The notes: generated by a model not told the origin, from the letters alone. A stretch of 64,000 nucleotides of DNA from Escherichia coli (GCF_048403405.1 NZ_CP183129.1); one strand, 5' to 3'; positions 1,098-49,621 are shown, counted from the first letter of the stretch. Numbers and translations are program-made.

Positions 1098-1697
1098 TTA
1101 CAGCGGTGAATCCTGGCTAATCTCATCGAGCGAAAGATGGAAGCTGGGAACAAAGACTTCCATGAAGTAGTCCATCTCCTGGCTGCGGCGCGCTTCAAGC
1201 GTCGCTTCCAGTCGCGTTTTTGCCAGCAAGAATTCATTATTTCCCGCCGCGAGTTCTTCCAGACATTTCAGATATGCACACAGTGCATCTGCCTGTTTCA
1301 CCAGCGATTTCTCTTCATCGCTATATGCATGCTCGTCAATTAACGGCGCAAAAATATCCTGCAGCTCTTCCGGAACCATATCGACCAGTTTTTGCTGAGC
1401 GATTTTTTCAATCGCCTTGTATTCCTGAGCGATTTGCGAATTGAAGTATTTCACCGGAGTAGGGAGATCGCCGGTGAGCACTTCTGAGGCATCGTGGTAC
1501 ATCGCCAGTAAAGCGATACGTTCGGCGTTGACATTACCGCCAAATTTCCGATTTTTGATAGCTGCCAGCGCATGGGCGACCATCGCTACCTGCAAACTGT
1601 GTTCGGACACATTTTCCGTCCGCACGTTGCGCATCAGCGGCCAGCGGTTAATGAGTTTCAGGCGGGAGAGATGGGCAAAAAAATGGCTCTGTTTCAT
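1098..1697 (-). CDS. yfbR: 5'-deoxynucleotidase YfbR (HD-domain dNMP phosphohydrolase)
   Basis: 199-aa ORF; HD motif region ([11 protein letters not shown]...[15 protein letters not shown]); matches recalled YfbR. Confidence 0.93.
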
Positions 1698-1780
1698 AGT
1701 GACCTTACGTATGATGACATCATCAGGTCATTGTGGCGGGATAACACTGCCGGATGCAATCTCCGGCAGTGAAATTAAGA

Positions 1781-2998
1781 TTACAGCTGATGATAACCAG
1801 AAAGGAAACGCGCGAACTTACTCAAAGACAGCTCGATATCATCGACACGCGGTAGCGTGACAATGCGGAAGTGATCCGGCCACGGCCAGTTGAATGCCGT
1901 CCCTTGCACCAACAGAACTTTTTCCTGCAACAGGAAATCCAGCACCATTTTCTGATCGTCGTGAATATTAAAGCGTTTGGCGTCGATTTTCGGGAACATG
2001 TACAGCGCACCGCGCGGTTTCACGCAGGAAACGCCCGGAATATCGTTGATCAATTCCCACGCGCGGTTACGCTGCTCATAAAGACGCCCGCCGGGAGTAA
2101 TAAATTCACTGATGCTCTGATAACCGCCTAGTGCAGTCTGAATGGCGTGTTGCGCAGGAACGTTAGCACACAGGCGCATTGAGGCCAGCATTTCCAGACC
2201 TTCGATGTAACCTTTGGCGTGTTTTTTCGGCCCGTTCAACACCATCCACCCCTGACGGAAGCCAGCAACGCGGTACGTTTTCGACAGTCCGTTAAAGGTA
2301 ATGGTCAGCAGATCAGGTGCCAGCGGCGCAATTGAGTGATGCTCAGCGTCGTCGTAGAGAATTTTGTCATAAATTTCATCGGCGAAGATAATGAGATTAT
2401 GCTGGCGTGCAATCTCCACTATCTCCATTAAAAGCTCTTTGGAATATACCGCGCCAGTTGGGTTATTTGGGTTGATAATAACGATCCCACGCGTACGAGG
2501 CGTAATTTTAGCGCGAATATCATCAAGGTCCGGGAACCAGTCAGAGGATTCATCGCAAAGATAATGCACCGCTTTACCGCTGGAGAGCGAAACCGCCGCG
2601 GTCCATAGTGGGTAATCAGGTGCAGGAACCAACATTTCGTCGCCGCTGTTCAGCAATGCCTGCATTGCCTGAACGATAAGCTCCGATACACCATTGCCGA
2701 TGTAAATATCTTCCACGGTAACATCACGCATGCCACGAGCCTGGTAGTGCTGCATGATGGCTTTACGCGCGGAGTAAAGCCCTTTGGAATCGCAATACCC
2801 TTGAGCGGTAGGCAGGTTGCGAATCACGTCAACGAGGATTTCATCTGGCGCGTCAAAACCGAACGGGGCAGGGTTGCCGATGTTCAGTTTCAGTACCTTG
2901 TTACCTTCTTCTTCCAGGCGTTTTGCTTCTTTCAGCACCGGACCACGGATGTCGTAACAGACATTCTCTAATTTGCTGGATTTTTCAATGGGGGACAT
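1781..2998 (-). CDS. alaA: Glutamate-pyruvate aminotransferase AlaA (PLP-dependent class I aminotransferase)
   Basis: 405-aa ORF; PLP-lysine motif region (NGLSKTYRVAGFRQGW); synteny with yfbR and lrhA. Confidence 0.95.
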   Translation of the reverse strand: MSPIEKSSKLENVCYDIRGPVLKEAKRLEEEGNKVLKLNIGNPAPFGFDAPDEILVDVIRNLPTAQGYCDSKGLYSARKAIMQHYQARGMRDVTVEDIYIGNGVSELIVQAMQALLNSGDEMLVPAPDYPLWTAAVSLSSGKAVHYLCDESSDWFPDLDDIRAKITPRTRGIVIINPNNPTGAVYSKELLMEIVEIARQHNLIIFADEIYDKILYDDAEHHSIAPLAPDLLTITFNGLSKTYRVAGFRQGWMVLNGPKKHAKGYIEGLEMLASMRLCANVPAQHAIQTALGGYQSISEFITPGGRLYEQRNRAWELINDIPGVSCVKPRGALYMFPKIDAKRFNIHDDQKMVLDFLLQEKVLLVQGTAFNWPWPDHFRIVTLPRVDDIELSLSKFARFLSGYHQL

Positions 2999-3914
2999 GA
3001 ATCTTGACCTTTTTTGCTGTTATCGCCACTCCCTGCCGTGGAAGTCAGCTTAGAACAATGTACTCCCCCAGGACGGCGTTTTGAAGGTCTGCAGAATAAG
3101 ATTTTGCCAGAGGGGAAGACTCGATTGTGCTGTTAATAACTTAATAATGGCAAAATAATGAGGTGTATATGCTTAGTAATTAATGTTATGTAGTGAATTG
3201 TTCTGATTCTTAATTGTGAGCGTGGTTTTTTTATCTGTAAGATAATTGTTTGAAAATGCCTCGTTTAAGAATTCACTAATGAATCGTGATGATGATATTT
3301 CCGCATTACGGAGAGTTTAACAGCGTGATGATTTCCGAGGTGTCGTAATGGGTGCAAGGTGTGAAACTATTGTTAAGCGGGATTAATGTATGAGGATGAT
3401 GCTAATTAATTATTATTTAATATTCAAAAAGGTTTTGTTGTGCTTATTAATAATAGAAGATTACTTTGCCTAACATAACATAACTTTGCATCAGATAATT
3501 CGCAATGACCCTTATAAATAAAAGGTTTTTGGGGTAAAATGCTCGCATAAATGACGGATCCCTGCTCTTGATGCCGCCTCACCATTGCTGTTTGTACGTG
3601 TTCGCGTATGACCAGCGATGCTGCACGAGAGTGGAACAAGGACTCACATTTACATTTATACAAACACGCGCATGTCATAAATACAAAAGAGTGAGTAACT
3701 TAATAGATATGCGATTCCTGAAGATATATTCTGTGATCTACTTCAGGCATTATAACGGAACAATGTGAGTCGCTTTTTTAGTGCAACTCATATGCATTTT
3801 TACTTTCGTCCGGGTTCCGGATGAAACTGCCAGGGAGGCACATTACAAATGGAATTGCTTGTTTGTGTGTGCACAGCATTAACCAGCTCAGTATGAGCCG
3901 CCAGTAAGTGATAA

Positions 3915-48435: not shown

Positions 48436-48475
48436 TATCAAAGGCCCATGGGGATCGGCTGTGGGCCTGTGTTAA

Positions 48476-48649
48476 TTAGTGGTTATTCGCTGCCAGATCG
48501 GCTTCGCTTAGCTGGGTGGCTGCGAGCACCAGGTCACGATCAATGCCCTGTTCCAGCATGCGCAAAGCAATTTTAATGGCTTGTTCATGCATGCCTTCCT
48601 GCCAGCCAATTTGGTGTCCTTCCTGCCGTAGCCGTTCAGCAATAGTCAT
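48476..48649 (-). CDS. ypaA: YpaA-like small ORF: stand-alone partial duplicate of the C-terminal tail of the adjacent Rpn-family gene
   Basis: Hand translation of the minus strand gives a 57-aa ORF ([57 protein letters not shown]), below the track's length cutoff; strong SD aaggagag 7 nt upstream; nucleotide-level direct repeat of the yfaD 3' end. Confidence 0.7.
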   Translation of the reverse strand: MTIAERLRQEGHQIGWQEGMHEQAIKIALRMLEQGIDRDLVLAATQLSEADLAANNH

Positions 48650-48661
48650 TAATCTCTCCTT

Positions 48662-49621
48662 TTAATGACCGTTCGGAATATCAGCATCAGTGAGTTGGGT
48701 TGTCGCCAGCACAATCTCACGTTCAAAGCCCTGTTCCAGCATGCGCAAGGCAATTTTAATGGCTTGTTCATGCATACCTTCTACTTTGCCTTTCTGCAAC
48801 CCCTCCAATTTCCCCTCCTGCCAACCTTCAATTTTACCTTCCTGCCAGCCAATTTGATGTCCTTCCTGCCGCAGCCGTTCAGCAATAGTCATTAATCTCT
48901 CCTTTTGTAGTGGTGAACGTTCGGCAATCTCCTCAATAAAACGGGTGAAACGGGAGGTATCGCCGCATTGCAGCAGGTAATTAAACAGCGTTTGTAGCTG
49001 GCTGTCATTAGTGAAGCCTCTAACCAAAAGCGTGGTGATCCTGTCGACCATACCGATTAAATCGCGGTCGCGAATATGCTTTTGAATCAGTTCCAGCAGA
49101 GCTATACGCCGATGTTGCATGATCTCATCGTCAGGTACGATGGTGATATCCACCAACGGAAAAGCTTCGGTGTACAACTGCCGGGCAAGTTGCGGATCGT
49201 CAAACTCATCCAGCCAGTTGAGTGAGTACGGGTAGGGCGAGGTTTCGCCATGATAAAACAGCAATGGCACCACCAGCGGAACTCTGTCATAGCCTTTATC
49301 CAGGTGACGCTGCATGGCGGCAGTGGCATAGCGCATTAGCCGAAAAGCCATATTCTTTTCTGCAGAGCTTTGATGTTCAATCACGCAGTAGATATAGCCT
49401 TCACCGTCGCTGGTTTCCACAGACCACAAAACATCCGAGTAGTAAGCGCGTAAACTTTTTTCAATAAAGCTGGTGGGTTCCAGGCGTAAAGTTTGCAGGT
49501 TGCAAAGCTTGCGCAGCGGCTCTGGTAGATGTATTTCCAGAAAATCCCGAGCGGTTTCGGGTGTGAACATAAAGGTTTTAAACACCGCATCATGCGGGGA
49601 GGAGGTTGTTGATTCGGTCAT
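48662..49621 (-). CDS. yfaD: Rpn-family recombination-promoting nuclease (PDDEXK / transposase_31-like) YfaD/RpnE
   Basis: 319-aa ORF; N-terminal PD-(D/E)xK-type region ([24 protein letters not shown]) and C-terminal GWQEGK(I/L)EG repeats. Confidence 0.88.

Follow-up and report, generated by a model that had tools for sequence, protein, structure and literature searches.

A hypervariable four-residue repeat tract in the Escherichia coli nuclease gene rpnE (yfaD) and its tandem duplicate ypaA: rediscovery and strain variation of a known Rpn feature

Background

The 3′ end of yfaD carries an array of short tandem repeats in a 64,000-nucleotide (nt) stretch of an Escherichia coli genome (GCF_048403405.1, NZ_CP183129.1; the whole stretch is hereafter called the window, and coordinates are counted from its first nucleotide). 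The locus raises the questions of what the array is, how it differs between yfaD and the neighbouring duplicate, how the number of repeats changes among strains, and what such changes would do. The repeats are real and were interpreted correctly in outline by the first-pass annotation, which was made from the sequence alone, and they are already known, being a rediscovery of a feature of the Rpn systems described by Zhong et al. (PNAS 2023, PMC10400941).

Each of the five rpn genes of E. coli contains an internal start of translation from which a small C-terminal protein, RpnS, is produced, and the toxic nuclease RpnL is blocked by RpnS, toxin-antitoxin activity having been shown for RpnA and RpnB (PMC10400941). 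Every E. coli RpnS, including the RpnSs copies, has four-residue repeats in its dimerisation helix that start 8-20 residues past the initiating methionine and vary among strains, and the number of repeats sets the specificity of RpnS for RpnL: one extra repeat in either RpnC_S or RpnC_L alone abolishes neutralisation and one in both restores it, a matching rule shown for RpnC only and with one added unit (PMC10400941). In strain K-12, ypaA is a second, expressed copy of RpnE_S, named RpnE_Ss; downstream copies of the RpnSs type can be lost through deletion or fusion; and protection from phage was shown for the plasmid-borne RpnP2 only (PMC10400941). Ribosome profiling of K-12 had earlier detected the internal start of rpnE, the product of which is near identical to YpaA (10.1101/520783).

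The locus in the window has the same rpnE and ypaA genes, internal start, repeat position and strain variation as the published RpnA-E systems, and nothing differs in kind; the window allele has eight units in rpnE and three in ypaA, whereas the K-12 allele described with those systems has three and four. The present analysis established how the locus is organised, to which family it belongs, where the tract lies with respect to RpnA_S, and how the tract varies among strains and in what step sizes. Three details were not found stated in the main text of PMC10400941: the junction of the duplication, the mutually independent variation of the two tracts, and a frequency of approximately 43% for single-copy genomes in the sample analysed here.

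Results and discussion

The nuclease gene rpnE and its internal antitoxin gene

The gene yfaD is rpnE, and the features that define it are as follows.

48662..49621, minus strand: rpnE (yfaD), encoding RpnE_L of 319 aa with the nuclease domain N-terminal and the variable tail C-terminal (translation of the open reading frame)
48662..48892, minus strand: rpnE_S, the intragenic antitoxin gene, an in-frame internal open reading frame encoding 76 aa and ending ...PNGH
48897..48904, minus strand: Shine-Dalgarno sequence of the rpnE_S internal start, AAGGAGAG, read from the sequence

Residues 8-209 of RpnE match the Pfam family Transposase_31 (PF04754, profile positions 1-202 of 203, E = 4.4e-88), and the protein scores 707 bits with the NCBIfam equivalog NF007418 (cut-off 583) and 172.8 bits with the Rpn family model TIGR01784 (cut-off 52.1). 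By the Transposase_31 and TIGR01784 matches, RpnE has the PD-(D/E)XK nuclease domain of the Rpn (YhgA-like) family. It also has the C-terminal helical domain of RpnS, as indicated by precomputed matches of Pfam HTH_Rpn_C (PF27070) to the RpnE tail and to YpaA and by the RpnA_S profile match described below. The RefSeq name for rpnE is 'ISNCY family transposase', and a comparison of the tail with PADLOC-DB 2.0.0 gave a weak match to the candidate model 'putative invertase' (E = 3.9e-5).

The internal ATG of rpnE_S lies at 48892-48890 with the Shine-Dalgarno sequence upstream, so that at the level of sequence rpnE has the internal start and ribosome-binding site of the Rpn systems. In all E. coli loci that matched the pattern the internal start is the same, and the motif KE[RKH]LMTIA[ED]RL is conserved around it in orthologs from Citrobacter and Salmonella. 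A simple scan for a sigma-70 consensus promoter of a short transcript found none; a transcription start inside rpn genes has already been published.

The repeat tract

The repeats form one tract in the part of rpnE that is shared with rpnE_S, composed of the following units.

48770..48865, minus strand: repeat tract of eight 12-nt units (four residues each, xGxx), beginning at residue 10 of RpnE_S (unit reading and Tandem Repeats Finder)
48854-48865, minus strand: unit 1, EGHQ
48842-48853, minus strand: unit 2, IGWQ
48830-48841, minus strand: unit 3, EGKI
48818-48829, minus strand: unit 4, EGWQ
48806-48817, minus strand: unit 5, EGKL
48794-48805, minus strand: unit 6, EGLQ
48782-48793, minus strand: unit 7, KGKV
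48770-48781, minus strand: unit 8, EGMH

The claim that the yfaD tail contains tandem repeats is thus confirmed, both by the eight xGxx units and by Tandem Repeats Finder, which reported a period of 24 and 3.0 copies at 48776..48847 (70% matches, score 67); the bounds first given for the array, 48740-48835, were displaced leftwards by approximately 30 nt. The self-identity of the 96-nt tract at a lag of 24 nt is 0.64, the highest in the window, reached by 9 of 63,905 positions of a sliding frame, all of them starting at 48770-48778 (mean 0.265, standard deviation 0.055), but at a lag of 12 nt it is 0.38, which is unexceptional. The contrast between the two lags implies that at the DNA level the period is 24 nt and that 12-nt units of two kinds alternate. 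Identity among the three 24-nt copies of the window allele is only approximately 64-70%, which makes this allele a poor substrate for slippage.

Glycine occupies position 2 of essentially every unit in all alleles examined. The lone unit without it is ESMH in place of EGMH, the last ypaA unit of strain E2348/69 (locus L058), the ypaA of which also bears two substitutions near its C-terminus (SETDLAAKNH). With its start at residue 10 and its variation among strains, the tract has the location and the four-residue period of the published repeats, 8-20 residues past the RpnS start.

The tandem duplicate ypaA

The second copy of the tail lies immediately downstream of rpnE, and the two copies are delimited by the following features.

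48476..48649, minus strand: ypaA (RpnE_Ss), encoding 57 aa, a free-standing duplicate of rpnE_S (open reading frame and alignment of the copies)
48587..48622, minus strand: minimal three-unit tract of ypaA (alignment of the copies)
48782..48841, minus strand: 60 nt (five units, 20 aa) present in rpnE and absent from ypaA in this strain (pairwise alignment)
48654..48661, minus strand: Shine-Dalgarno sequence of ypaA, AAGGAGAG, directly past the rpnE stop codon (48662..48664)
48680..48931, minus strand: proximal copy of the duplication, from GAGATTGCCGAACG (EIAER...) via the internal start and the tract to ...GCTGAT (local alignments)
48497..48682, minus strand: distal copy of the duplication (local alignments), with the junction triplet GAT (48680..48682) common to both copies

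The duplicate had been described as having none of the repeat units. Five units (60 nt) are indeed missing, and the DNA alignment of the two copies has one gap, of 60 nt, in ypaA, but the minimal three units are kept. The ypaA gene is in frame with rpnE, four codons beyond the rpnE stop, and the same 17 nt (AAAAGGAGAGATTAATG) precede the MTIAERL starts of both rpnE_S and ypaA. The last 18 nt of rpnE with the stop codon (GATATTCCGAACGGTCATTAA) align, with gaps of 1 nt and 5 nt, to GAGATTGCCGAACGTTCACCACTACAA, which encodes EIAERSPLQ just upstream of the internal start, and this alignment implies a head-to-tail duplication of approximately 186 nt with a junction that shares GAT. As the alignment reads, the rpnE ending IPNGH is a remnant, in a shifted frame, of IAERSPLQ at the beginning of the duplicated unit, and ypaA retains what is evidently the ancestral C-terminus (...LAANNH, 48476..48496). 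The ypaA-type ending (...LAANNH) is shared by all single-copy E. coli alleles, and a related one, AANNH, terminates the Salmonella ortholog.

RefSeq/PGAP mostly annotates ypaA as a pseudogene ('hypothetical protein; incomplete; missing N-terminus') beginning immediately past the rpnE stop, and a few RefSeq records name it 'Rpn/YhgA-type helix-turn-helix domain-containing protein'; the pseudogene label disagrees with the published expression of YpaA. A GC-rich hairpin of 10 pairs (AGGCCCATGGGGATCGGCTGTGGGCCT, 48442..48468, plus strand) lies between the convergent genes rhmA and ypaA and looks like a terminator shared by both. On the plus strand, a putative antisense open reading frame of 76 aa (48665..48895) is almost exactly coextensive with rpnE_S and another of 49 aa (48516..48665) overlaps ypaA; the sequence TTAATGAC at the internal start is the reverse complement of GTCATTAA at the rpnE stop. 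The antisense frames probably arise incidentally from codon composition and from the duplication.

Position of the tract in the RpnS fold

A profile of tail variants matched the PDB entry 7TH0, 'Recombination-promoting nuclease RpnA' (RpnA_S, 49 aa), with E = 1.9e-5; a phmmer search with full-length RpnE against PDB sequences found nothing relevant. Residues 1-13 of 7TH0 align before the RpnE tract and residues 15-45 after it, so the tract of RpnE is an insertion between residues 13 and 15 of RpnA_S. The two proteins have the same N-terminus and the following helix aligns, whereas the crystallised RpnA_S (49 aa) essentially lacks the tract, which has eight units in RpnE_S and accounts for an additional 20-32 residues. 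In the crystal, RpnA_S is a dimer of three-helix bundles joined via the long first helix (PMC10400941). An AlphaFold2 model of the RpnE_S monomer from a 12-sequence alignment was of low confidence (mean pLDDT 67.8, with block means of 48-57 over the tract) and placed helices at residues 25-53 and 58-65, with no single continuous helix over the tract.

Orthologs of RpnE in Citrobacter and Salmonella with 63-70% identity have the conserved internal start followed by four-residue units of the GLQx type, and their lengths step by four residues (309, 313, 317, or 316, 320). Residues 205-287 of RpnE, which cover the tract, also gave weak matches to the NCBIfam models of FliH (E = 1e-7 to 4e-4). Membership in the FliH/YscL family was rejected, the best model scoring 31.2 bits against a cut-off of 293, as was membership in the Yae1 family (Yae1_N 13.2 bits against 27.5, E = 0.072); scores so far under the cut-offs indicate shared composition and periodicity, not homology. 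The GxxxG repeats of FliH/YscL (PMC2674601) and the deca-GX3 motif of Yae1/Lto1 (PMC4523923) have glycine at every fourth residue in soluble helices, their repeat number varies, and a role in helix-helix pairing has been proposed for them (PMC2674601, PMC4523923). The RpnE tract resembles both in its glycine at every fourth residue and its intervening Glu, Gln, Lys or hydrophobic residues, and differs in that the FliH repeat number varies between species and the RpnE tract between strains of one species. By analogy, the likeness supports the picture of a glycine-lined pairing helix in the RpnE tract. A further parallel, cited in PMC10400941, is the TAEL repeat of HsdS in EcoR124I/EcoR124II, also a four-residue repeat the copy number of which alters the specificity of a defence protein; the TAEL repeat governs how a DNA recognition sequence is spaced, whereas the Rpn repeat is proposed to set protein-protein pairing.

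A search for phage-encoded RpnS proteins that might act as free-standing mimics gave no more than eight matching records with 42-47% identity, among them Sodalis phage phiSG1 and a Leptospira phage. The records include three of phiSG1, in which the annotation reads transposase or gp15 together with a repeat region, as well as two large assemblies of Salmonella and two short, unannotated entries; outside phiSG1, the matches are unannotated or hypothetical. In phiSG1, a temperate phage or plasmid-like element, the tail homolog (43% identity) is in a gene annotated as a transposase, and one phiSG1 record has a 'repeat_region' over it. Plasmids bear many Rpn tails (1,401 records), as already reported.

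Variation in unit number among strains

The segment 48300..49300 was compared by megablast with 5,426 complete E. coli genomes, and the locus was present in 5,420. Length classes were taken from 60 rows at even steps down the megablast ranking, a systematic sample of the 5,420, and units were counted by a script in 24 E. coli loci chosen from the length classes, 14 metagenome loci and 20 contexts of exact YpaA alleles. An exact-pattern scan of metagenomes that yielded only these 14 loci, and a scan of species-representative genomes that yielded one E. coli locus and one chance match, are not to be read as a broad census.

The comparison of copy number across E. coli genomes that the first-pass annotation had proposed shows a repeat number far from invariant, changing in steps of 12 nt. 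If the second copy, which some genomes lack, is left aside, the locus lengths in the 60-row sample step by multiples of 12 nt: two-copy loci fall into classes of 953, 989, 1001, 1013, 1025, 1037, 1061, 1085 and 1109 nt (query ends allowed for), and a second series in which one whole copy is missing comprises 758, 770, 782, 794 and 818 nt. The window locus is 100% identical to that of strain TUM14771, and the locus of K-12 MG1655 is 48 nt shorter. By direct count, rpnE has 3, 4, 7, 8, 9 or 11 units, ypaA has 3, 4, 5, 7 or 9, and single-copy genomes have 3, 4, 5, 6 (O157:H7) or 8. With ranges of 3-11, 3-9 and 3-8 units, respectively, the array does tune the length of the tail and of the small protein between paralogs and strains, as had been suggested. 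The two-copy haplotypes, given as rpnE units/ypaA units, are as follows.

8/3: this window
3/4: K-12, the reverse of the window pattern
8/4, 8/5, 7/3 and 9/5: each found in two-copy loci
9/7, 11/7, 11/9 and 4/7: each found in two-copy loci
7/7: enteropathogenic strain (EPEC) E2348/69
11/4: rpnE count inferred from gene length

By locus length, approximately 33 of the 60 sampled rows are two-copy, 26 (approximately 43%) are single-copy, and in one row rpnE is interrupted by a Tn7-like insertion. Approximately 15 rows are of the K-12 type, approximately 19 of the single-copy three-unit type and approximately 3 of the window type. The YpaA allele of the window stood beside a 319-aa RpnE in 10 of 10 distinct contexts, and the K-12 allele beside a 299-aa RpnE in 10 of 10; this stability within lineages implies that the tract is variable at the level of the species but not hypermutable on short time scales.

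Particular strains differ further at or beside the locus. In strain CX04 (NZ_CP081713.1; positions 1677-3407 of locus L021), rpnE is truncated by an inserted Tn7-like element with genes for a transposase and for a protein with a TnsA endonuclease N-terminal domain, and the rpnE remnant is a three-unit tail fragment with 40 upstream codons. The annotation of the neighbouring gene rhmA (yfaU) is that of an aldolase truncated at its N-terminus, both in many strains of the single-copy three-unit type and in one eight-unit locus (L005, positions 1-736). In L005 the truncated rhmA adjoins yfaY directly, which suggests that the rest of the rhamnonate operon (rhmR, rhmD, rhmT) has been deleted there.

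Relationship between the rpnE and ypaA unit numbers

The numbers of units in rpnE and ypaA are unequal in 11 of the 12 distinct two-copy haplotypes, the sole match being that of E2348/69. One match in 12 is close to the approximately 10% expected under independence, an expectation calculated from frequencies in the 60-row sample, so the two tracts look independent in their variation. After the first ten haplotypes had all proved mismatched, a rule that ypaA never equals rpnE in number was considered, and it was rejected on the existence of 7/7. Equality was tested by searches with synthetic matched queries of 7/7, 3/3 and 4/4 units. The 7/7 query matched E2348/69 and its relatives at full length and in one piece with 99.1-99.2% identity, the units being verified as 7 and 7, and some 20 further genomes share this haplotype with E2348/69. 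The queries of 3/3 and of 4/4 units matched only K-12-type 3/4 loci, with a 12-nt gap. The combination 3/3 does exist in the form of a read-through fusion protein (P0002, described below).

If the published matching rule holds for RpnE, YpaA would usually be a non-cognate antitoxin. YpaA might then be a reserve tract that recombination could transfer into rpnE so as to reset toxin-antitoxin specificity, or a neutraliser of incoming RpnE variants of other lengths, but we consider such a role rather unlikely.

How unit number changes and what it would do

The closest pairs of alleles differ by exact duplication of neighbouring units. The O157:H7 locus L011 carries two copies of GAAGGTTTGCAG, and its close relative L012 a single copy in a tract that is otherwise identical; two isolates from Swiss rivers (L008, L009) have an identical RpnE protein and ypaA genes that differ by a 24-nt duplication with one mismatch. 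Such differences are the trace expected of slipped-strand mispairing, or of unequal exchange, inside the tract, and from them we infer slippage as the mutational mechanism. Recombination between the rpnE tail and ypaA also occurs and contributes to the variation, to judge from the sequences of two recombinant products: L005 is a single-copy chimera in which a window-type eight-unit tract is joined to a ypaA-type C-terminus, and P0002 (361 aa; E. coli, a cluster of 10 member sequences) is rpnE read through into ypaA, with Gln in place of the rpnE stop codon, giving a nuclease with two tandem tail domains of three units each. The description of the array as prone to slippage therefore stands insofar as exact 12-nt and 24-nt duplications separate near-identical strains, and has to be widened to include recombination between the copies.

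The best interpretation of these data, with a probability of roughly 0.8, is that the repeats are the hypervariable four-amino-acid tract of RpnE, the unit number of which tunes the pairing of RpnS with RpnL and moves by slippage or unequal exchange as well as by recombination. The C-terminal domain of RpnE would be made twice, as the tail of RpnE_L and as the separate 76-aa RpnE_S from the start at 48892, and ypaA would be a tandem duplicate of the small gene (RpnE_Ss) with the minimal three units in this strain. The units with glycine at every fourth residue would sit in the long first helix of the three-helix RpnS fold, which corresponds to the dimerisation helix of RpnA_S, so that gain or loss of units would lengthen or shorten this helix and thereby determine which RpnS pairs with and silences which RpnL. 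The number would move in steps of 12 nt and 24 nt by slipped-strand mispairing or unequal exchange within the tract, and recombination of the rpnE tail with ypaA would generate the chimeric and single-copy alleles. This interpretation presumes, by analogy, that the blocking shown for RpnA and RpnB and the number-matching rule of RpnC apply to RpnE. Points that weigh against it are the low-confidence RpnE_S model with no single continuous helix over the tract, the stability of haplotypes within lineages, and the low identity of the 24-nt copies in the window allele.

The relative weight of the two mutational processes could be otherwise: in place of replication slippage, the main source of variation could be homologous recombination or gene conversion involving both tandem copies (the rpnE tail and ypaA), perhaps with the help of the Rpn nuclease itself. 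The chimeric single-copy allele L005, the ypaA-type C-terminus of all single-copy alleles, the difference of only 2 of 84 nt between seven-unit tracts in the rpnE position (L004, L058) and in the ypaA position (L016, L018), and the same unit composition in both copies of E2348/69 are all consistent with exchange between the copies, and involvement of RpnL was raised by the authors of PMC10400941. Single-copy genomes nevertheless range from 3 to 8 units without a partner copy, the nearest alleles differ by the exact adjacent 12-nt or 24-nt duplications expected of an event within the tract, and orthologs in other genera, compared in the rpnE counterpart alone, vary likewise; recombination as the main source is doubtful. 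A tandem repeat within the coding region of a defence-type gene, with a copy number that varies among strains, also has the appearance of a phase-variable contingency locus, at which repeat number would switch expression on and off; but the unit is 12 nt, so every observed allele is in frame with a complete tail, no frameshifted allele was present among the recovered loci, and exact alleles are stable across many genomes. As every length step keeps the frame, this explanation was rejected as extremely improbable.

The tract could instead be a low-complexity segment that changes length by slippage and has no function, with the differences between rpnE and ypaA and among strains attributable to drift. 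Neutrality would account for rpnE and ypaA numbers that look independent (1 matched of 12 haplotypes, about chance), for the stable inheritance of haplotypes, and for the approximately 43% of sampled genomes that have a single copy, with as few as three units. Against it, glycine is kept at position 2 of essentially every unit with the one exception of ESMH (L058), a like tract occupies the same position in orthologs of 63-70% identity, and in RpnC neutralisation is lost on the addition of one unit and regained once a matching unit is added (PMC10400941). A neutral length polymorphism is accordingly considered unlikely, and a tract that tunes RpnS/RpnL pairing is the preferred interpretation.

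Conclusions

The finding mainly confirms that the Rpn repeat tract can be spotted from raw sequence. What is added here is the duplication junction, the independent variation of rpnE and ypaA, the stability of haplotypes within lineages, and a picture of the alleles across thousands of genomes. The naming of rpnE as a transposase and of ypaA as a pseudogene in RefSeq is a cautionary case for annotation. If its unit number acts in RpnE as interpreted above, the tract would be a compact means by which a defence toxin and its built-in antitoxin shift their pairing specificity together, and may be a useful model for the co-evolution of genes within genes.
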